DNA of 64,000 nt from Rotaria sordida (Eukaryota): NCBI GenBank assembly GCA_905250005.1, contig CAJNOH010000087.1, forward strand, positions 208,393 to 272,392, read 5' to 3'. The position numbers and the translations under genes are program-made. Positions 1,970 to 64,000 of the stretch are shown piece after piece. Below the pieces are notes generated by a model. That model was not told where the DNA came from. It did no database searches and was given only the letters and a program-made list of their open reading frames with translations. The first letter of the stretch is position 1. Each line of letters starts with the position of its first letter.

Positions 1970-4516
1970 TTACATGATATCACAAATAGCTGATGTTGGA
2001 TTCAATCGATCGTCAGTTTTATATGGTATGTAGATTTTTATTTCTTCGAGAAAAGTAAGATAATCCTTCAAACTAAGTGTTATCGTCAGTTGAGATCTAG
2101 CAATGTCCTCCTTTAGTGAAGAAAACATAGCTTGTTGGCTTGCTTGGCACATATCATAAACTTTATGCAATAACCGACCGTTCATTCCTTCGAAAGCTGG
2201 TAGAAAAATACTAAGTTCTTTATCAAGAAGAAAAGATTTGACATGATCTTTAGTCCACATATCGATACAATGTGGATATTCCCTACAATAAAAAAAACCA
2301 ATTGATTATAGTTTCATGTGATCTAATGTTGAAGTTTTCCTATAATAAGTAGAAGTGTCAGTTAATGCATAGATAGGCAACAATGGATAAAAACATACTG
2401 GTAAAACATTTTACAAAGACATTTTAAAAAATTATTCTGGTAATGGGGACTCAGCCGATTGCATTGTACGTTTAATAAGTGCCAGTACAAAAATTTCTGA
2501 GATTTATTGAATAGAAATCTCGGTGTCAATAAATGTGAATCTGAAGAATCGTTTTGTTATATTTCAGTTGACACAAATGTTACAATGGTAATGCTTTTTT
2601 TTTCATTTTCTAAGCATTGCTATGTCCTTAAAGTGTTTGTCGATGAAAAGTATAAGATAAAGTAAATTTACTAATTAAATTTCCATAATCACTAAACATC
2701 ACTATCTATACAAGTTATCAAGAAGAGTACCTCATGTCTAGAATAACAACTTTCACCCTCAAAAAAAAAAAGACTTACACAACTGGACGCGGTTCTTTAT
2801 TATTTTCAACGCTTGAATTTGTTTTTGGTGTACTATCCATTAACGAACTTGAATTGTGATGGACTTGATTTTGTTCGGCAAGTATTAAGTTTGAATTATT
2901 CATTCGAAATAGTCCTATCTGTTTCTTAAGTTCTTGATAAGCTTTATCGAAACCAAGTTTCGGAAAATCAATATAGATCAATGCTGATGTTAACACTCCA
3001 AGCCATCCATCAGCTTTGTAGCTAGTTGTCATAACTAATGGAATAATATGACATCGACGTTTAACTGCATAGCTAGCTTCCATTTCACAGAAAGGACTCT
3101 GTTTGTAAGCATCAGACATACAAACAAGTACAAATTCTGCATTTTCAATAGCTTTAGCCATAGCATCAAATGTAGCACCATGCATCAATCGAGAATCAAT
3201 CCAAACACATAATTGATCTTTCTCGAGAGAACTTAAAATACGATGACACAGTGTTTTATCACTATGTGAGTAACTTATCATGATATCATATTGTTTTTTA
3301 TCAATCATTAATGAAGAAATTGAAGAAGGTTGTTGTTGTTGTTGTTGAACTGTTTTGATTATTGTTTCTGGTTCTTTTTCTAATTTCCATATTAATGCAG
3401 TAGCTATTAGTTGTAGATCTTGTTGTGATGATGAAGTCAATGTTCGAATATGATTCATGAAAGTATCATTGTTTTTGAGAATAGTCGCAAATTCTTTGTT
3501 AAAGACTAATGCAAGAAGAATTTCAAGTGCAGGAAGTTTTGCTTTGAGTGGATTGAATTGATCTTCGAGAGCACATCGAAGAAAAAGAGAATGACCTTTT
3601 TGTTTGATTAATTCTTCTCGAATTTGATCATGTTGTGTTAATACTAAAGAGAAAAAAAATAAATGATTAGTTTCTGAATGAGTGTATTTATAAAAAAATA
3701 TTTTCTTAACTATTATTATTCCTTGGAAGAAGAAGACAACTAAAACTAACCTTTAAGACTTCGAAGACTATTGTGTAGGCGACCTTCTGTACGAATACCT
3801 CCATCAATAACATTTTTAATAAAAGTAATAAAAACCGTAGCGATTCTACTCGAATTTTGAAGTTGTTTTATATCTGCTTCTGCCATAATAACAGCCAGAA
3901 TTCGATAGGCATGTAAATGAATTTCATCATCATTATTTGATTTTCGTATAAGTACATTGATAAGATCGACTAATTGAAGACTTTTAAGATAAATAACAAG
4001 TTCACTATCCAGAGTAAAATAGAAGAGAATTTGAAGAAGTTGTTGAACAAGAGGTATACCAGCTGGATCTATTGTTACTTGATTTGATTCATTGACAGAC
4101 AGTAGAATACGTTTGATAGTATCAGAGATATGTCGACATGCATCACGTGTGCCGTCACTAGTTATTACATCGCCAAGATCCATTCGAAATAATAAGTTAG
4201 TTAGATGTAGTAAGATATTTATCATAGCTGAATTCCATTTGATATATGGTGGCCGACCAGTATAATTCTCACTAAGCCAACTATTGAACCATTTAAGATG
4301 AGTACGTCGAATTCGTTCAATTATCTCTTGACGTCGATTACCTTCATACCAGGCAATTTGATTTGGATAATGTTCAAGTACGGTAAGTTCTTCATATGAA
4401 CGAGAATTGGACTGTTCTTTAGCAATTTTTTCGAACATTTGTGTATATAAAGGAGAACAAACTTGATCAACAGATCTAGCCAACATATCTGTAAACTCTG
4501 TGTAGACATGTGACAT
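1970..4516 (-). CDS. SARM-like protein, copy A (about 647 aa): an N-terminal alpha-helical domain followed by a TIR domain and a C-terminal SAM domain. Exons 3751..4516, 2779..3643 and 1970..2282.
   Basis: ORFs 3746..4516, 2775..3458 and 1970..2260 sit on one strand. Exon 1 ends AAAG|GTTAGT (phase 1). The acceptor is ..ttctctttag at 3644-3649. The exon-2 reading frame is open upstream of its first Met, reading LTQHDQIREEL... The TIR motif is YDIMISYSHSDKTLCHRI...FVLVCMSDAYKQSPFCEMEASYA. A GTAAGT donor overlaps the TAA stop at 2773-2778. A poly-Y plus AG acceptor sits at 2283-2284, in phase with a SAM-like exon (YPHCIDMWTKDHVKSFLLDKEL...GMNGRLL). No homology search was possible. Confidence 0.7.
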
Positions 4517-7197: not shown

Positions 7198-9473
7198 TCA
7201 GATAAGATTACAAACAGTTGATATTGGATTCAATGAATTGTTAGCTGTGAATGGTATATAGATTTTAATTTCTTCGAGAAAAGTAAGATAGTCTTTTAAA
7301 CTGAGTATTGCATGTTGAGATCTATTAACGTCTTCTTTCAATGATAAAAACATTCCTTGTTGATTGGCTTGACACATGAAATAAGCTTGATGTAGTAATT
7401 TTCCGTTCATTCCGTCTAGGATAGGTAGAAAAGCATCAAGTTCTTTGTCAAGAAGAAACGATTTAACATGATCTTCAGTCCACATATCAATACAATGTGG
7501 GTATTTCCTACAAAAAAAAACAAAAAAAAAAGTTATTTACGTTGGCATTATTCGATCTATAGTTTTCTTATAAATTATACTTTAGATTTTTGATGAAAAT
7601 TGGAAGATAAAATAAATTTACTAATTTAATTTCAAAAATCACTAAACATCATTATCTATACAAGTTATCAAGAAGAGTACCTCATGTCTAGAATAACAAC
7701 TTTCACTCTCAAAAAAAAAAAAGACTTACAAAACTGAACATGGTTCTTCGTTATTTTCTTCACTTGGAACTATTTCCGATGTATTATCCACCAACGAACT
7801 TGAATTATGATGGACTTCATCTTGTTCAGCAAATGTTGAACTTGAATTATCAATTCGAAATAGTTCAATCTGTTTCTTAAGTTCTTGATAAGCTTTATCG
7901 AAACCAAGTTTCGGAAAATCAATATAGATCAATGCTGATGTTAACACTCCAAGCCATCCATCAGCTTTGTATTTAGGTGTCATGACTAATGAAATAATAT
8001 GGCATTGACATTTAACTGCATAACTTGCTTCCATTTCACATAAAGGATTCTGTTTGTAAGCATCAGACATACAAACAAGTACAAATTCTGCATTTTCAAT
8101 AGCTTTAGCCATAGCATCAAATGTAGCACCATGCATCAATCGAGAATCAATCCAAACACATAATTGATCTTTCTCGAGAGAACTTAAAATACGATGACAC
8201 AGTGTTTTATCACTATGTGAGTAACTTATCATGATATCATATTGTTTTTTATCAATCATTAATGAAGAAATTGAAGAAGGTTGTTGTTGTTGTTGTTGTT
8301 GTTGAACTGTTTTGATTATTGTTTCTGGTTCTTTTTCTAATTTCCATATTAATGCAGTAGCTATTAGTTGTAGATCTTGTTGTAATGATGAAGTCAATGT
8401 TCGAATATGATTCATGAAAGTATCATTGTTTTTGAGAATAGTCGCAAATTCTTTGTGAAAGACTAATGCAAGAAGAATTTCAAGTGCAGGAAGTTTTGCT
8501 TTGAGTGGATTGAATTGATCTTCAAGAGCACATCGAAGAAAAAGAGAATGACCTTCTTGTTTGATTAATTCTTCTCGAATTTGATCATGTTGTGTTAATA
8601 CTAAAGAGAAAAAAAAATAAATGATGAACTTCTGAATGAGTGTATTTATAAAATATATTTTCTTAACTATTATTATTCCTTGGAAGAAGAAGAAAACTAA
8701 AACTAACCTTTAAGACTTCGAAGACTATTGTGTAAACGAGCTACATAAGGAACACCACCATCAATAGCTTTCTTAATAAAAGTGATAAAAACAATAGTAA
8801 TTCTATTTGAAATTTGCAGTTGTTTTATATCTGCTTCTGTCATAATAACAGCCAGAATTCGATAGGCTTGTAAATGAATTTCATCATCATTATTTGATTT
8901 TCGTATAAGTACATTCATAAGATCGATTAATTGAAGACTTTTAAGATAAATAACAAGTTTACTATCCAAAGTAAAATAGAAAAGAATCAAAAGAAGTTCT
9001 CGAACAAGAGGTAGAACAGCTGGATCAATGGTTGTTGGATTCGATTTACTAATGTTCAATAAAATACGTTTGATAGTATTAGTGATTTGTTGAAACGCAT
9101 GACGTGTATCATTGCTAGTAATAACATCATCGAGATCCATTCGAAAGAATAAGTTAGTTGCATGCAACATAATATCATTCATAACTGAACTCCATTTAAT
9201 ATATGGTGGTAAACCAGTATATTGCTTACTTAACCAACTATTGAACCATTTAAGATGAGTACGTCGAATTCGTTCAATTATCTCTTCGCGTTTATTTCCT
9301 TTATACCATGTGATCTCATTTGGATAATACATGAGTATAGTACGTTGTTCATTTGAAAGATAATGAGGCTCTTCTCTGGCTACTTTTTGAAACATTTGTG
9401 TATATAAAGAAGAACAAACTTGATCAACCGCTCGAGCAATTTCAACTGTAAACGACGTAGAATTTACAGTCAT
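7198..9473 (-). CDS. SARM-like protein, copy B, the tandem paralog of copy A (helical domain, TIR, SAM). Exons 8708..9473, 7730..8600 and 7198..7507.
   Basis: Exon and intron architecture matches copy A. The donor is AAAG|GTTAGT at 8702-8707. The TIR exon is nearly identical to copy A at nucleotide level. A GTAAGT donor overlaps the stop at 7724-7729. The acceptor before YPHCIDMWTEDHVKSFL (SAM) is present. A (CAA)n polyQ tract codes 7 Q here versus 5 in copy A. Confidence 0.7.
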
Positions 9474-10380: not shown

Positions 10381-13300
10381 TTAAAAACTTGTTGTATTTT
10401 CATCAATATTTTCATTAAAAATTTCTTTTAGAATTTTTTTTCGTTTAATCGATTCAATATATAATCGATTTTCTACTATATCAGGATGATAGGGTGGTAA
10501 TGTTTTTAAAAATTGTTCAGTTGATTTTTCTATACTTTCTATAGCTTCATCTAATTTTCCTTGACTTGAATAAACAAGTGATATATTAAAAAGTGTTATA
10601 CCAACTATTGAATGATTTTCTGGTAATGATATTGATGCAATTTCAAGACTTTTAAAATAACATTGTAATGCTTCTGAATATTGTTCTTCTCGATAATACA
10701 TTAAACCAATATTATTATAAAGTAATGCAAATGATGAATGTGTTAATGGTAAATATTCTTTTTGACATTCTAAAGCAAGTTTTAAATAATATAATGATTC
10801 ATTAGATCGACCAATTTTTAAATAAACATTTCCTAAAGTATAATAAGAAGAACCTAATGTACTAGAATTACGTGGTACAATACGTTCTTGAATTTCAATT
10901 GATTTTTTATAATTATCTATAGCTTCATTATATTTAAGTTGTGCAAGATATGCATCACCTGTATTATCATAAGTTAATGCAAGTTCACCATCATGTGATT
11001 CAGTTACTTGTTCAAGAATTTTGAAAGTACGTTGAAATGATTGAATAGCTTCAGAATATTTTTCTTGTCTTAAAAAAAGAATACCTATATTATTTGTATA
11101 ATTACTAATTGAAAGTAAATCTGGAGTATTTGTACGAAGTTGTATATTAAGTGCTTTTTGATAATATTCATGAGATTTTTCAAAATTATCTAAACGTAAA
11201 TACATTCCAGCTATATTACCATAAAGTGTAGTTAATTCTAATGTATTTGGTGAAATAAAACGAAGAAATGCATCTAATGAAAGATGATATAATTCAACAG
11301 CACGTTTATAATCATCTTGATTACGATGTGATGTTGCAAGTGCAAGACAACTAGCAGCTATTGAAGTTTGAATATTTACATCTGCTTTTAAAGTTTCATC
11401 ATTAAACATTGTTTCAACTATTTGTTCAGCTAATATGTGTTGATTCATTACAATCATTAATTTTATTAAGGTAATCAATTGAGAAAAACTTTTGATTTCC
11501 GTTCGTTTAGTCTCAAGTATTTGTTGAATTTTTTGTTGATCTTCATATTTAACTAATGTTAAATGAATATAAGGAATTTGATTTTCATTAATATTTTCTT
11601 TTTCAACTTTAATTAAACGTCCCATAATACCCATATTTAATAAAACATCATTATTATTATCAATTAAATATCGACGTGAACTTATATTAGCACATTTAAA
11701 ATGTGCTGGTATATCAATACGAATAAGAATTGGTATATAATCTTCAGTTAAAGTTGGAATTTCTTTAGCAATACGAATAGCTCGTAATTGATCTGTTGAA
11801 CCAAATAAAAATTGAGGAAATACAATGAGATCATCATTTAAAAGATTTTTTTGTAAATTATCAAGATCATCTCTTTGCATTGTTTGTCCAAGATAAACTA
11901 TTATTGAATCTTTTACGGATTCATTTTCTATTTGTTGAAATAAATCTTGAATAAATAAACGAAGTTTATATAAAATATCAGGTTCAGGAGTACGAAGAGC
12001 TTTATTTAACATCTAAAAATAAATGATTTGTTTGTTTTTTTTTTTTCATTTTTAACTTTAATTATTTATAAATAAATAAATTTACTTTTGATAAAAAACA
12101 TTGTCTTGAAAACCAATAAATTGCTTGATTTTTTTGATAATTTTTTTCAAATTCATCAATTATTTTTAATTCTTCATCATTACCATCATATTCTTGACGT
12201 GAAAAATTAATTAATTCTTGTAAATTATTTCTATTTTCATTTTTATCAAGAATTATTTCACTTAATAATTGACAATATATATAAGTTGTAGGAAGTGTAG
12301 TTGAATTTGATGACATATTTATATACATTACTAAATCACGTTTTATTTTATGTATATCTTTTGATATTTGTTCATATATATCATTGAAATTTTTATATAA
12401 ACCTTGAACTTTTAATTGTTTAAATGATGAATAATTAATTTCATTATTATTATCAGATAAAATATAAATAGTAAATATTTGTTGAAGTCCTTCAATTCTT
12501 GGAAGAATTGAATTAACAAATAAATTTGAAAGAATAAAGATAATTTTTTCATTGAATACACCATTTATAAATGCAACACAATCATCAATATCATTGAAAA
12601 TTTTTAAGAAATTAATAAGACTACGAAATTGTTTTATTATTGATTCATCAGGATATGAAGAATGTAAATAAATAAGGGTAAAATATTCAACATTACCTTT
12701 TTCTCGAGGTGCACTATCGAATAAGACTTTTGGACTTTCGATTTGTTGTTCTAATTTTAAAAAGAAAAAGAAATAATAGATATATAATAAAACATAGTGG
12801 AATTTTCTATTGCAGAGAAAGTAAGTTCAATCGATTTGTAAGAAGAACATATTACATTTTATGAAACACGATCTAAAAGGAGTTTTGAAGTATAACAGGA
12901 CAAAAATATGCATCCTCCTTCCCCAGCTGTGGCAGATGCTAGTCAAAGACTATCATAAATCGTGGCTAGAGATATGCTGAATCAAGTTTTTTTTAGCAGC
13001 GGTATCGATCTAGAGAAAACTATTCCAAAATTTATTCGTATGAAAACTAAAATAATTCATTAGCACTTGATTTTTTTATTTATTTAAGCTGCGACTAATA
13101 CTTTTTTGAATCTTCTCTCTTGAATATGAAAAAAAATATATTCCAAAATAGATAAAATAAGACAATTTTTCACCGATTAACAAGAGTAGCTCATTCAATT
13201 ATGTTAATTGAATCAAAGTATTTTAAAACGCTTATTGAGTTATCATGCTGTCTTTTATTGCTAGTGAAATTTGATCTGAATAACAAATCGTGATTTCACT

Positions 13301-27440: not shown

Positions 27441-29850
27441 ATGTTAACAATTCAGTATTTGATTATTTTAATTGTTTTTCAAATTTGTCATTTATTTGTT
27501 CTTCTTGATATTCCATCACAATCAAATGTATTAAAATATAATGGTGATAAAAAAACATCATCATTCTATTTAAAAAATTCATATTATACAACAAATAATT
27601 CAAGTTCATCATCTTTAATTGATTATATGAGAACATTATATGAACAAGAAAAACAAAATGATATAAAATCTGATTATAATCTTATACGAGCTCTTGCACC
27701 ACGTATCGGTAAGATGATTTTATGAGTTTAATGTATGTCATATTGGATTAGAATTAAAACAAAAAAAGAAATGTTGAGTGCTTTTAGACACCCTTTTGAG
27801 TATGATAATAAATCGATATATATATATATATATATATACTCCGTGAAATAAACCAGACGACGAGACACGTTAGTTTTCATCGTCAGTTCAAAGTAGCATG
27901 CAATCTATGACAATACATTCAATCATCGAAGCTAATTGGTTATAGGAAGCATTGCATTGTTATTAAAAGATTCTAAATGAATGATTCTTTTTTTCTTTGG
28001 TGTAGTTATGTCAATCATAGACACTTTTTCTTTTTAGAGTTAACTATCATTTGACGTAATGAATAGGCGGATCATTTCTTTTCCGTAGTACATAATGATC
28101 AATTGTTGTCTGCTCGTTGACCTATAGTCGCATAATCTTTCTTCTTTTTTTTCCTCTTCATTTACCATTGAACTATTAAACAACAAAAACAGATACTTCT
28201 GTTTTGTTTCGTTAAAGTAATCTATGTTATAATAATATAGATAAACAGTTATGTATTCCATAGGAGTAAATGGACATACTCATCTAAGTCAAGTATCATC
28301 TTAAGTATAGTCATTGAAGAAAAAAGAAAGAATAACATATTGAATTTTTCTCTTTAATCAATTGAAATCTGCTTACCGAAGAAAAAAAATCGATCAAAGG
28401 CACTTCATCTCGATTTATTTTATATTTTTTTTATCAATTGTTTAATATGATATGAGCAATCAAGCTATATGTACGTCCTTCGCTAAAGATCATCTTAGCG
28501 ATTAATTTTTATTAACATTGAATACGATTTTATCACATCTTCTTTATCAAATTCGAGCTCATTGTGACATCTGTCACAAAAAATTTTACAAATCTGACAT
28601 ATTTAATCGATAAATTGACTATCTCTTTTTTTTTTAAGTCTCCATAGAGATAAACATTTTATTTATATTAAAAGAAAAGAAAAGAAAACCATCTGATCTA
28701 TTTTCATACATTATTAATGAATATTTAGGTTTTTTTTTTTGTTAATCTATAAGACAACTTATGAATAAGAAATCAAAGAGTACATAGATAAAAGAAAAGT
28801 TTAATTTTAGTTGAAATCGATAATGTTACACTGTATGTTTTCGATTTAAATGTTATTCATCGTACGGAAAGTATTTATGCTGTTTCATTACATTTTTATA
28901 AACGTCGAACACGTTGGCCAATATCATATTCGTTAAATGAAATTTATTCATCACATCGACTTTCTTCACTTTCTGCTCAAATACATTTAGAATCTGATTC
29001 CTATGGTTGGCAATCATTTCCAATAGGTGATGTTATTCAACGTCAAATTAATTATTTAACATCAATACAAAAATCTGAATATTTTGGTATAACATTTAAA
29101 CCAACAGTAACAACAAAAAATCAACGAAGAAATATAATTGAATTAGAAAAATTTAGTGTTTATACACCATTTTTAATTATTTATTCAAATGATTCAAAAC
29201 AAACAAATATTTTCGAAGAATTTATACCAAAAAATTTTGAACAAGATGTTAAATCTTATGAACAATTTGAAACAGAAGTTAATAAAAGAAACAGGTTATT
29301 TATTTATTTATTTATTAACAAGAGCAAAATCTTCGGACTATATATATATATTTTTTTTTTATGTATTATTCATTTTTAGATTACGACGTTTTATTGAAGA
29401 AAAACAATCAACATTAGATTCAAATATATTTTTATCAAATTGGAATGATTCAATTTCAATACTTGAACCTGAAACATGTTCAGTAAAACCTTTTGTCATT
29501 GATTTTTCTGATTTAGGTTTTACTTCATGGATGATTGAACCAAAAAATTTTGTGGCTAATCTATGTTCAGGTTCATGTCAAACTAAAGTTAGTTTATTTA
29601 TTCTTGATCAAAACAAAAAAAAAACAATGTTTTTTAATATATTTTACTTATTGTTTAGTTAATGACAAATCATGCACTTCTTCAATATTTTCTTCAACGT
29701 TTAGGTATTAGAAATGATATAAATTTACCAAAAGCTGGTTGTGTACCTGAACGTTATTCATCTTTAACTATGTTCTATAAAAGTTCAGACTATAATTATC
29801 TTATTCGTCGTTTACCTAATATGATTGTCGAAGCATGTCATTGTAGATGA
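27441..29850 (+). CDS. TGF-beta superfamily ligand precursor (signal peptide, prodomain, RxxR site and a cystine-knot mature domain), about 383 aa. Exons 27441..27708, 28811..29294, 29380..29587 and 29659..29850.
   Basis: An N-terminal hydrophobic signal reads MLTIQYLIILIVFQICHLFVLL. Donors and acceptors are in phase (G|GTAAGA, ttaattttag, AG|GTTATT, catttttag, AAA|GTTAGT, ttattgtttag). There is an RNRLRR furin-like site. The mature domain reads CSVKPFVIDFSDLGFTSWMIEPKNFVANLCSGSCQ..NHALLQ..AGCVPERYSSLTMFY..MIVEACHCR, the canonical TGF-beta cysteine spacing. Confidence 0.8.
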
Positions 29851-59713: not shown

Positions 59714-62416
59714 CTACAGAATATTACATAAAGCAGATTCTTCTTTTAATCTTGATTGATTGACAAGTTTTTTCAAACCACTCAAAAATCGACTATATTC
59801 ATCGAGATGAAAAAGATCTTTTCCAATCTTATTTCTCAATCGATTATATTCTTCTTCAATACGTAATGGTGAATCAATAATTAATTGTCCATAAATAATA
59901 AGTTGAGATCCATCAATAAAATTCAATGCATTTAATAAATAATCAGATAAATGATTTTGTTGAAACCAATATTTTATGTCATTACGTGTCCATTGATCAG
60001 GTAATTTAGTTGATATTGTTTGGGCATCATTTAATGAAAGAATTGATGTAAATGATGATATTAAATTAGAAAATTGTTCTCTACTTACACAATGATCACG
60101 CATTCGATGTTCATATTCATCATATTGTGCATCATCATGTGATAATAACTTCATATATGTTAGTAAAGCTCGACCAGATGATAGTTGAAGAGTAGATGGT
60201 GGTAAATGAAGCCATTGTTGTACTTCTTCACAAGTCCATTGTTCGATTGGAGAAGTAGGTATAATGTCTGATACAGTAAGATTTGATTGTAATTGTATGT
60301 CAGAAATTTCTATAATTGGATTGGTGTTTACATGTAATGATGATGTTTCAATAGTTTGAATATTAGTAATTGTGTTTGAATCAATTTCTGATTTTGATTT
60401 AAGTTTTAAATGAGATCCATGTGAATAAGCAAGCTTGTTATTATTTTGTGGTACTTCATCTCGTACAGTAATTAAACCTAAAAGAGTTTCCATAACTTCT
60501 TCATCATTTTTCTCACCTCCAAAACGAACCCATGTTGCGGAACCAGCACGAATTTCAAACCAATCTTCTGGTATATAATCTTTTCCTATATAAACAGGTA
60601 CCATACGTTTGTTACGTTTATCAGCATGAACGACTTCCCTTCGACAGCTTTTTGAACCACAATAATTTTCTGTTACAATCATTACAATAACATTACATTG
60701 AGTTATTGCTTTAGCAATTTCTTCCCAATCATCTTCATATGGTGGTGATAATTTATTAAAATCTACCCAAATATCACCTTGATAATGTTCTTGAATTTTT
60801 GTAACAAGGTTTTTACAAAATTTGGCGTCTTTATGTGAATAAGAAATCATAACTTTTATTTGATTATCATCATCATCATCATGATTATGATTATCTTCAA
60901 TTGGTTGTATATCCATTTGTATACAATCAAGATTAAAAAGAATTCCTTTAGCTGCGCGTTTCATGTCTAATTCATATTCATCATTTGATTGATTTTTTGC
61001 TCTTTGTTCAACGAATGAAAGAAATTCATTATTTAATTTTAATTTAATAGAATATTCAGATAAAAAACTAATTGACCAAAATATTGTATAAAGTGATGAA
61101 CAAATAATTGTATTAAGTACTGTTGATTCACATATGTTATTAAATAAAAGAAATTTTTCAATAAATAATTCATATATATTGTCACGTGAAATAATATAAG
61201 TAAGCAATGCATCATTAACAACTAATTTAACTAGTCCCTCTAAATATTCACAAACATTATATGGACCACAGGTAAGATCAACAGAATCAAATGCTTTCAT
61301 TGTTTGTTCAAGAATATAATCAAGAATTGTTTGAATATTAGAGACACTTTCATTTTTTAATTCCTTCGGTTCCAATAATTTTGCATAAAGAAGATAATAA
61401 GCCATACGAATATCTTTATCGTCTTCGTTATAATCAATAACTGACGATTCGGATAAATATTGTTCTTTCCATTGCTTAATACTATCAATCATTTTTAATT
61501 CATTTAGTGCTTTTACACCAATGGGATGTCGAGCTAGATTATGTAATATATTAATAATGCAAGACCATGATTCAAGAGAAATATATTTTATATGATCTCG
61601 TTCAATTGATATCCATTGTAAAATAGCATTTGGATAACCAATTTGAACAAAATAGGGAACAAATCCATAGATATCTGTCATGTTAAGAATCCATTTAAAA
61701 ATTGATGTATAGACTTGAGATTGTTGATCATTATTTAAAAAATAATTATTTATATAAGTTATAAATGCTTGTAAAAGTCGTTCGGTTGAATTATTTAATT
61801 GAAAAAATGTTGGAATATTTTTATGTGAAACAAATATTGAATAAGAAATACCTCTTCTTGTATAAAGCGATCGTGCACCAATAGAAGCAAACAAATGAAG
61901 AAAATATTCATCCATATTTGATAGAATATGTTTTTTATTAATAAGATAATTAATTGTTGAATCATTAATTAAATAAGTAAGTGATAAATCAAAATAATAA
62001 TCACATAACACTGGATATATTGCCATATTTATATACATTTGAAAACGAATTGCATCGAATAGAGCTTCTAAGAGATTAGATGGAATTATTGAAGAATATC
62101 GTTTGATAAAATGAGAAAAGGAATTTATTTCAAAATAATTAAGAGTAGACATCCGTTTCTGATTTTCATCAATTGTTCTTATATCCCATTCATCATCGAT
62201 TTTTTGCAATTGATCACGAAGATTAATTAATGGATGAGACTCGATTTTCTTCAGCATATCATCGTGAAATAGAAGAGTTTCTAGTTGATGAATACAATTA
62301 AATATTGGATCGTTGTTAGTAGTCATACTGCTCGCACGAAAACAACAAATAATCAAGTGTACGTTTTTTGTCCTTCGTTTTTTTTTCTTTCTACAAATAT
62401 GAAAGGTATATTTCAT
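59714..62416 (-). CDS. SARM-like single-exon protein with an N-terminal alpha-helical (ARM/HEAT-like) region of about 500 aa, a TIR domain and two tandem SAM domains. The likely start is MTTNNDP near 62326.
   Basis: The TIR motif reads IKVMISYSHKDAKFCKNLVTKIQEHYQGDIWVDF..VIVMIVTENYCGSKSCRREVVHA..MVPVYI. SAM1 reads IEQWTCEEVQQWLHLPP..GRALLTYM. SAM2 reads DQWTRNDIKYWFQQNHLSDYLLNALNFIDGSQLI. The first 30 codons of the listed ORF (MKYTFHICRKKKKRRTK..) look like translated A-rich leader. Confidence 0.75.
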   Translation of the reverse strand: MKYTFHICRKKKKRRTKNVHLIICCFRASSMTTNNDPIFNCIHQLETLLFHDDMLKKIESHPLINLRDQLQKIDDEWDIRTIDENQKRMSTLNYFEINSFSHFIKRYSSIIPSNLLEALFDAIRFQMYINMAIYPVLCDYYFDLSLTYLINDSTINYLINKKHILSNMDEYFLHLFASIGARSLYTRRGISYSIFVSHKNIPTFFQLNNSTERLLQAFITYINNYFLNNDQQSQVYTSIFKWILNMTDIYGFVPYFVQIGYPNAILQWISIERDHIKYISLESWSCIINILHNLARHPIGVKALNELKMIDSIKQWKEQYLSESSVIDYNEDDKDIRMAYYLLYAKLLEPKELKNESVSNIQTILDYILEQTMKAFDSVDLTCGPYNVCEYLEGLVKLVVNDALLTYIISRDNIYELFIEKFLLFNNICESTVLNTIICSSLYTIFWSISFLSEYSIKLKLNNEFLSFVEQRAKNQSNDEYELDMKRAAKGILFNLDCIQMDIQPIEDNHNHDDDDDNQIKVMISYSHKDAKFCKNLVTKIQEHYQGDIWVDFNKLSPPYEDDWEEIAKAITQCNVIVMIVTENYCGSKSCRREVVHADKRNKRMVPVYIGKDYIPEDWFEIRAGSATWVRFGGEKNDEEVMETLLGLITVRDEVPQNNNKLAYSHGSHLKLKSKSEIDSNTITNIQTIETSSLHVNTNPIIEISDIQLQSNLTVSDIIPTSPIEQWTCEEVQQWLHLPPSTLQLSSGRALLTYMKLLSHDDAQYDEYEHRMRDHCVSREQFSNLISSFTSILSLNDAQTISTKLPDQWTRNDIKYWFQQNHLSDYLLNALNFIDGSQLIIYGQLIIDSPLRIEEEYNRLRNKIGKDLFHLDEYSRFLSGLKKLVNQSRLKEESALCNIL

Positions 62417-63306: not shown

Positions 63307-64000
63307 TTAATTCGTATCAACAAAGTACAACCACTTAAAAAGGAACGATTCGTGTCGATCTTTCAATTGTCGCACACGACGTGTGCGAAAAAATTGACCA
63401 AGGCGATCGTTTTTCCTTTTAAAAAAATTATCCCAACCAAATATATCTTCATAGAAGAATGAAGAACCAAGATCAGTTGTGAACATAGTTTTTAATCTTC
63501 GTTGAATATATTTTTTAACGTAAAATTGTAAGGGCTGTTCAGAAGTGACTTTAAACAGATTATTCGCAGAAATGAAGGGACAGCGATGCACCAACCGAAG
63601 TCCTACACGGAATTTTTGTTCCAATACATGCTGTAGAGATTCTGGGAGGAGAGGAAAAAGCGGGAATAGCCACGCGAAATGCGGAAAAGTGTACGCGAAG
63701 AAACATTGACGAAGAGCTTTACGTGACATTTTGCGACCGGACTTCATCCATTTCAGTTTTCCTAGCGATCTCTGAATAAATCCTATGGTTTTATCGACTG
63801 TCGGTTTCAACGAAAGTTTATCCGTCCAAGTAAACCCTAGGTATTTGAATTCTTTGACTAACTCGATTTTATTTCCGTCTATTGTTACGTTTACTATAGG
63901 TCTTTTAACTTGTGTATGAAATAGTTGTACTACAGTTTTTGAAACATTTAACGGCTGTTTCCACTTTTTTGAGTACATAAAAACCTGATTACAAACTCGT
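63307..64000 (-). mobile_element. Non-LTR (LINE-type) retrotransposon. Only the 3' part of the reverse-transcriptase ORF is present, truncated by the window edge.
   Basis: ORF 63307..63978 (and the open frame beyond it) reads ..IDGNKIELVKEFKYLGFTWTDKLSLKPTVDK...LRQCFFAYTFPHFAWLFP. This has the KYLGV..D..L.W..H and LY..LVRP.LEY layout of the C-terminal RT or thumb region in CR1/jockey-like LINEs. Confidence 0.55.

Follow-up and report, generated by a model that had tools for sequence, protein, structure and literature searches.

The gene described here lies on the minus strand of a 64,000-nucleotide stretch of DNA from the bdelloid rotifer Rotaria sordida (contig CAJNOH010000087.1, positions 208,393 to 272,392; hereafter 'the window', to whose own numbering all coordinates refer). 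It is intact, and its 870-residue product appears to combine, in this order, an armadillo (ARM)/HEAT-like α-solenoid, a TIR domain, a linker, two SAM-like domains and a C-terminal CaaX box. The reading that best accommodates the evidence, to which a probability of roughly 0.6 is assigned, is that of a bdelloid ARM-TIR-SAM-SAM-CaaX protein acting as a membrane-tethered, SAM-oligomerised TIR NAD+-cleaving enzyme (NADase), and belonging to a family other than that of SARM1.

A preliminary description of the window, made from the sequence alone, had placed a single-exon protein of 900 residues at 59714..62416, and the open reading frame (ORF) listing of the window has a 900-codon ORF at exactly these positions on the minus strand. 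The start of the protein has been corrected. A search of a collection of 5.8 billion proteins located an R. sordida protein (CAF0855709.1; UniProt A0A814YPW1; P0001, 870 aa) that is 100% identical to the ORF from Met31 onwards, and all 23 aligned homologues, which form the close-homologue set used below for conservation, Pfam and model alignment, likewise begin at this methionine. Because the annotated protein and the homologues start there, the coding sequence is most likely 59714..62326, a single exon of 870 codons plus a stop codon, and its translation was checked. The 30 in-frame codons upstream (62327..62416, minus strand; MKYTFHICRKKKKRR..., MKYTFHICRKKKKRRTKN...) are missing from the annotated protein and from every one of the aligned homologues, and are probably untranslated 5′ sequence. 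Residue numbers given below are those of the 870-residue protein; ORF numbering is obtained by adding 30.

Residues 1–468 (60923..62326) gave no match in Pfam. In the full-length AlphaFold model they form an all-helical solenoid of ∼ 25 stacked helices, with predicted local distance difference test (pLDDT) values of 80–95, and the alignment behind the model is shallow (23 sequences). The stacked repeats wind into a right-handed superhelix of the ARM type, and the structural matches of the region are ARM/HEAT proteins. The TIR domain follows at residues 491–620 (60467..60856), where Pfam TIR_2 (PF13676) aligns with ORF residues 522–645 at E = 2.2e-16 (60.9 bits against a curated cut-off of 28) and is matched in 23/23 homologues; the motifs VMISYSHKD and CRREVVHA, by which the domain had been recognised in the preliminary description, are both present in the translation. 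Between this domain and the C-terminal region lies a linker, residues 621–690 (60257..60466), that is predicted to be disordered (pLDDT 24–37). Conservation among the close homologues follows the domain boundaries, with mean pairwise identities of 75% in the TIR, 54–60% in the SAM-like domains, 41–58% in the solenoid and 21% in the linker. The TIR is therefore the most conserved part of the protein and the solenoid the most variable of the folded parts, its identity being lowest at the N-terminus. A search of the whole protein against PDB sequences gave no match; the whole-family profile returned only noise plus MyD88 at E of about 0.8.

The two C-terminal domains were assigned from their predicted fold. 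When the last 183 residues were modelled separately the pLDDT was 85. SAM-like domain 2 (residues 776–860, 59747..60001) shows the canonical five helices in a compact fold that matches solved SAM domains, and it is the SAM common to the whole family. SAM-like domain 1 (residues 691–770, 60017..60256), delimited from the model helices and from alignment with domain 2, is a divergent copy with deletions at the site of the short second helix; the two are homologous as judged by hhalign (probability 96%, E = 1.3e-9, 70 columns). The best matches of the SAM-like domains are the SAMs of Aveugle and CNK, ahead of those of SARM1. No Pfam SAM model rose above its threshold in the protein (SAM_PNT, E = 0.023, 15 bits against a cut-off of 24; SAM_3, E = 0.008 in a homologue), and the sub-threshold matches recur in 8–13 of the 23 homologues. 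In profile searches of the PDB the SAM region reached liprin-beta and ETV6 at E = 0.005–0.4, the liprin-beta SAM being the best natural sequence match for the start of domain 1. The natural matches of a wider SAM profile, the ETV6 and liprin SAMs at 0.005–0.01, are marginal. Two other hits were discarded: the fungal chorismate mutase 6fpf, which headed the search with the C-terminal profile at E = 0.006 (liprin-beta, 0.36), was treated as a chance match, and de novo designed helical repeats, which headed the search with the wider SAM profile, were rejected as compositional artefacts.

Together, the TIR_2 match, the ARM-like model and the SAM fold bear out the order that had been claimed for this protein, namely helical, TIR, SAM, SAM. 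The description of the last two as well-formed SAM domains holds for domain 2 and was an overstatement for domain 1, which is without its second helix. Pfam confirms the TIR outright, whereas the SAM assignment stands at the level of fold and fails at that of the HMM searches which the preliminary description had put forward as a check.

Reference TIRs whose catalytic residues are stated in Table S4 of a 2026 preprint (bioRxiv 10.64898/2026.04.20.719644) were aligned with the TIRs of the window. A single invariant column unites Glu564 of the present protein (Glu594 in ORF numbering; codon 60635..60637, minus strand; motif SKSCRRE, hence CRR-E-V) with SARM1 E642, dSarm E919, AbTIR E208, BdTIR E127 and Adineta steineri E440, and also with the second Glu of CEM-E-A in two tandemly arranged TIR genes elsewhere in the window. 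Glu564 is invariant in the 23 homologues and equally so in paralogues of the tandem type. Moreover, a profile search of the PDB aligned it with the Glu of the CWDE motif of Cat1; MyD88, which is not an enzyme, has Gln at this position. The earlier suggestion, made from motif position, that a catalytic Glu is retained both in CRREVV and in CEMEA is thus correct. In the same Table S4 the TIR of A. steineri A0A814VN55 (E440) is marked active, producing cyclic ADP-ribose (cADPR), and, according to the text of the preprint, in no case was cADPR still produced once the catalytic glutamate had been altered by a point mutation. On this evidence the R. sordida protein is probably a TIR enzyme that cleaves NAD+.

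The protein ends in CNIL (59717..59728, minus strand), a conserved C-terminal Cys that is a predicted prenylation site. The CaaX rule predicts prenylation where the fourth residue from the end is Cys, the next two are mostly aliphatic and the last sets the specificity; the final Leu of CNIL suggests geranylgeranylation. This feature had gone unnoticed in the earlier reading of the sequence. The Cys occupies position –4 in 19 of the 23 close homologues, the other four looking like truncated gene models, and in 45 of 146 representatives of the wider family, against a Cys background of 1.9%; the final residue of the family CaaX ends is L in 19, M in 11, S in five and I in four. All three TIR genes of the window, each on the minus strand, end in this way, with CDIM (1973–1984), CNLI (7201–7212) and CNIL (59717–59728). 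Given the recurrence of the motif across the wider bdelloid family, these data suggest that lipid anchoring is a family trait. A literature search for 'TIR domain' with 'CaaX' returned no paper on a natively CaaX-bearing TIR protein, only work in which CaaX appears in other settings, among them an experimental membrane tag and Ras methylation.

The extent of this family was gauged by an exhaustive HMMER search with the family profile against 1.84 billion representatives. At E ≤ 1e-30 it yielded 85 clusters (50% identity), a number that rose to 716 when the limit was relaxed to E ≤ 1e-10. The best 146 were scanned with the family SAM profiles and displayed a recurrent layout of solenoid, TIR, one SAM and CaaX. 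A single SAM is the rule; two are the exception, found in a subgroup that contains the present protein and Didymodactylos sequences. Since single-SAM members predominate and SAM-like domain 1 resembles domain 2, the second SAM seems to have arisen by duplication within the family and not by inheritance of a SARM1 tandem. Twenty clusters were looked up: all 14 that carry a species name are from Rotaria, Adineta or Didymodactylos, and the other six come from metagenome or read-archive assemblies. As far as the named clusters go, the ARM-TIR-SAM(-SAM)-CaaX family is restricted to bdelloids and comprises at least 85 clusters. Its proteins are already in the databases as an uncharacterised 'TIR domain-containing protein', and TIR catalysis in rotifers is already known from the 2026 preprint; what is new here is that SAM domains and a CaaX box are recognised in them and that the family proves to be so large. 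UniProt lists one member (P0099 / P0240, Didymodactylos carnosus, 873 aa) under the name 'CENP-V/GFA domain-containing protein'. In the D. carnosus member the solenoid-matching part is preceded by ∼ 300 additional N-terminal residues, and P0100 (R. socialis, 1542 aa) has ∼ 700 such residues; some members thus carry further modules at the N-terminus.

These features can be assembled into a provisional mechanism. The product would be a cytoplasmic protein of 870 residues made up of a solenoid and a TIR with its catalytic Glu, followed, beyond a flexible linker, by the pair of SAM-like domains and the CaaX motif. Prenylation of the CaaX Cys, predicted from the motif, would tether the C-terminus to a membrane, where the SAM-like domains, if they behave as SAMs do in SARM1 and elsewhere, would oligomerise the protein. 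Oligomerisation would bring the TIRs together such that composite active sites could cleave NAD+ into ADP-ribose (ADPR) or cADPR-type products, a step suggested by the conserved Glu and by the published activity of the TIR of a relative. The variable solenoid might serve as a sensing or auto-inhibitory module; this part is speculative, argued by analogy with SARM1 and from the gradient of conservation.

Several observations weigh against such an enzyme. The TIR is the weakest part of the full-length AlphaFold model (pLDDT 45–65), and the SAM assignment is one of predicted fold, without significant profile matches. Four residues before the catalytic Glu, where SARM1 (Trp638), Cat1 and AbTIR have Trp, the present protein has Ser. 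The activity data come from the TIR of a relative, for which cADPR is marked and NAD+ depletion is not, and Table S4 (bioRxiv 10.64898/2026.04.20.719644) gives no mark of activity to a second family TIR that was assayed, R. socialis A0A820I9F2. Prenylation and membrane attachment are predictions from the CaaX rule, and oligomerisation, expression and an immune role are all hypothetical. As to the Ser, the active A. steineri TIR has the same residue at that position (SKSCQQE, compared with SKSCRRE here), so the Trp before the catalytic Glu is not required in this lineage.

Some of these points would equally suit a protein whose TIR is a non-enzymatic adaptor, that is, a membrane-tethered scaffold signalling through TIR-TIR and SAM-SAM contacts in the manner of MyD88 or TIRAP. 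Indeed, MyD88 is among the best PDB matches of the family TIR profile (E = 1e-7), and the missing Trp and the family TIR not marked active in the preprint assay would both be expected. Such an adaptor would not account for a Glu that is invariant in the 23 homologues and in both paralogue groups, at a position where MyD88 itself has Gln. Furthermore, a relative with the SKSCxxE motif makes cADPR, and loss of the glutamate abolished this product in every case in the preprint. The adaptor is the strongest of the alternatives to the NADase, and is nonetheless judged unlikely.

The preliminary description had gone further, seeing in this protein the SARM1 domain repertoire in permuted order and calling the arrangements at the locus consistent with lineage-specific shuffling of an NAD+-cleaving cell-death or immune module. 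On such a reading the protein could be the rotifer SARM1, an orthologue or direct derivative with permuted domains that keeps NMN/NAD+ sensing and NAD+-depleting cell destruction. The two do share the same classes of domain, as do dSarm and Caenorhabditis elegans TIR-1: an ARM-type solenoid, two SAM-type domains and a TIR with an equivalent catalytic Glu. The domains themselves point elsewhere. The TIR is only 18% identical to that of SARM1, compared with 32% to another rotifer TIR (that of A. steineri), and when the PDB is searched with the family TIR profile, Cat1, MyD88, Toll-like receptors (TLRs) and plant TIRs come up with E values from 1e-7 to 1e-3, and SARM1 only at 0.05. The nearest SAMs are those of Aveugle and CNK, and most of the family has a single SAM, the second being attributable to internal duplication. 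Neither the TIR nor the solenoid is closer to SARM1 than to other proteins. In addition, SARM1 is not known to have a CaaX box. Finally, within the portion of the preprint tables consulted, the TIR cluster of the relative and that of SARM1 have different representatives (A0A8S2IKR5_1 and T1J6E6_2, respectively; bioRxiv 10.64898/2026.04.20.719644). A derivation by shuffling from SARM1 thus finds no support in these comparisons, the terms 'permuted SARM1' and 'SARM1 orthologue' are unsupported, and it is improbable that the gene is the SARM1 of the rotifer.

That the gene is an artefact of annotation or assembly, whether a pseudogene in decay, neighbouring genes fused by read-through or a fragment of a mobile element, might be suggested by the retrotransposon-like ORF ∼ 900 bp upstream (63307–63978), by the absence of introns, which is unusual for a long animal gene, and by some homologue gene models without SAM-like domain 1 or the CaaX tail, but this idea is largely refuted by an uninterrupted frame of 870 codons that is conserved end to end in Rotaria and Adineta at 39–80% identity (∼ 100 invariant columns over all domains), by the same domain order in dozens of diverged paralogue clusters and by conservation that follows the domains, highest in the TIR and lowest in the linker.

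Besides the main gene, the window holds two TIR genes in tandem on the minus strand. Their exon structure was read from open frames, and exon bounds are approximate. Paralogue A (1970..4516) comprises a helical exon (3746–4516), an exon with the end of the ARM region and the TIR (open frame 2778–3752; listed ORF 2775–3458; TIR_2 at E = 1.6e-20) and a SAM-like exon ending in CDIM (within open frame 1973–2305; SAM profile E = 0.004), with its predicted catalytic Glu codon at 3078–3080. In paralogue B (7198..9473) the corresponding features are a helical exon (8703–9473), a TIR exon (open frame 7729–8709; listed ORF 7726–8415; family profile E = 1.7e-18), a SAM-like exon ending in CNLI (within open frame 7201–7536; SAM profile E = 0.003) and a predicted catalytic Glu codon at 8029–8031. 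The TIRs of the tandem genes score 74 bits against TIR_2. In a scan of 984 six-frame segments of the window the family SAM profile covered the terminal exon of each tandem gene over its whole length, and a wide SAM profile matched no segment beyond the three TIR genes. The helical-TIR-SAM arrangement that had been proposed for these genes is accordingly upheld by the TIR exon and by a terminal exon that matches the SAM profile.

Within the window the family profile matched only the main gene and the two tandem genes, all three being members of one family. Paralogue A matches profile positions 414–636 (E = 8e-23), corresponding to the last solenoid helices and the TIR, and comparison of the first helical exon of the tandem genes with the family profile detected no similarity (hhalign probability 1%). 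Because the match is confined to the last ARM helices and the TIR, homology of the whole N-terminal region between the two gene types is unproven. A search with the TIR exon of the tandem genes returned mostly exon-sized ORFs from metagenome contigs and no full-length R. sordida model. In copy B (7726–8415, minus strand) a Ser replaces the β-D Pro that is conserved in all other aligned TIRs (HIISLVM, compared with HIIPLVM), and there are several further substitutions relative to copy A; copy B may be a decaying or diverging duplicate. The three TIR-SAM proteins that had been counted at this locus are all present, but they form no tight cluster, since about 50 kb with unrelated genes separates the tandem pair from the main gene. 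The family being so large, the presence of several members within 64 kb does not argue strongly for a functional cluster.

The window has a G + C content of ∼ 30% and also contains ordinary animal genes. Between the TIR genes, at 29189–57514, are unrelated genes that include a TGF-beta domain, a 3-hydroxyacyl-CoA dehydrogenase, a short-chain dehydrogenase (SDR), a major vault protein exon, an NmrA/epimerase-like ORF and a glycosyltransferase family 25 ORF; Pfam associates the last of these families with lipopolysaccharide biosynthesis, and the ORF is possibly a horizontally acquired gene. Adjoining the tandem TIR genes, a 543-residue ORF (10381–12012, minus strand) encodes a TPR_12 repeat protein (E = 4e-53) with ∼ 200 N-terminal residues that have no assigned domain. 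The ORF at 63307–63978 (minus strand, 223 aa) had no Pfam match; from its sequence, which includes the motif KYLGFTW, we take it to resemble the region after the reverse-transcriptase domain of non-LTR (long terminal repeat) retrotransposons.

Among animal TIR enzymes SARM1 alone is, to our knowledge, well understood, and models of how TIR NADases are restrained and then activated build on its layout. A large family that was assembled independently, with the same parts in another order and with a membrane anchor, would constitute a natural experiment on what is essential in that layout. Must the SAM ring, for instance, lie between sensor and enzyme, and could a membrane take over some of the work of the scaffold? 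The family is, moreover, a candidate immune or cell-death system. Bdelloids are without canonical TLRs (PMC8609888, PMC6043800), and a 2018 review knew of no report of immune pathways in rotifers (PMC6043800). The family pattern fits an expanded innate-immune or cell-death repertoire in such animals. A bolder version, put forward tentatively as a possibility, is that bdelloids have built an intracellular immune receptor-effector repertoire from dozens of diverged, lipid-anchored ARM-TIR-SAM proteins. In these the variable solenoid would sense pathogen or damage, and SAM clustering at a membrane would activate the TIR for synthesis of a cADPR-type messenger or for consumption of NAD+; such a system would parallel, in animals, the TIR-NLRs of plants and the Thoeris of bacteria, with an evolution independent of SARM1. 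It has long been puzzling how bdelloids manage to resist pathogens without sex. The practical value of the finding is moderate, the proteins being in the databases already and catalytic rotifer TIRs being included in the 2026 preprint.

Among the closest known systems are the rotifer solenoid-TIR proteins catalogued in the 2026 preprint, including A. steineri A0A814VN55, a bdelloid protein whose TIR has the same SKSCxxE motif and 32% identity. It belongs to another subfamily (666 aa, TIR at 366–501), and its isolated TIR was assayed in Escherichia coli lysate (bioRxiv 10.64898/2026.04.20.719644). In the part of the preprint tables covered, its TIR cluster is represented by P0240 (A0A8S2IKR5), to which it is 51% identical; P0240 in turn shares a 90% cluster with P0099, which carries the ARM-TIR-SAM-CaaX layout. 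Neither SAM domains nor a CaaX box receive mention in the main text of the preprint, and A0A814YPW1, A0A813ZEL8 and A0A814ZBE3 were not found in the portions of its tables that were searched. The TIRs of Cat1, AbTIR, BdTIR, RPS4/RUN1 and Thoeris ThsB differ in their partner domains, which are NB-LRR, CARF or none; no bacterial or plant TIR among those matched combines an ARM solenoid, a SAM and a prenylation motif. With the SAMs of Aveugle/Hyphen, CNK, liprin and ETV6 the similarity lies below Pfam thresholds, and rotifer SAM-like domain 1 is without the second helix.

SARM1 itself is arranged as ARM-SAM-SAM-TIR, with the TIR C-terminal, and bears an N-terminal mitochondrial targeting sequence. 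In the rotifer protein the TIR stands between the ARM region and the SAMs, the SAMs are C-terminal and followed by a lipid-anchor motif, and the equivalent of Trp638 is Ser. Its solenoid resembles WAPL and beta-catenin at least as closely as it does the ARM of SARM1, and the protein comes from a multi-copy, lineage-specific family and is not a single conserved orthologue. Beyond the shared classes of domain, the expected likeness lies in SAM-driven oligomerisation and in a solenoid placed beside the catalytic domain, and a SARM1-like mode of working in outline is a reasonable analogy for the bdelloid protein.

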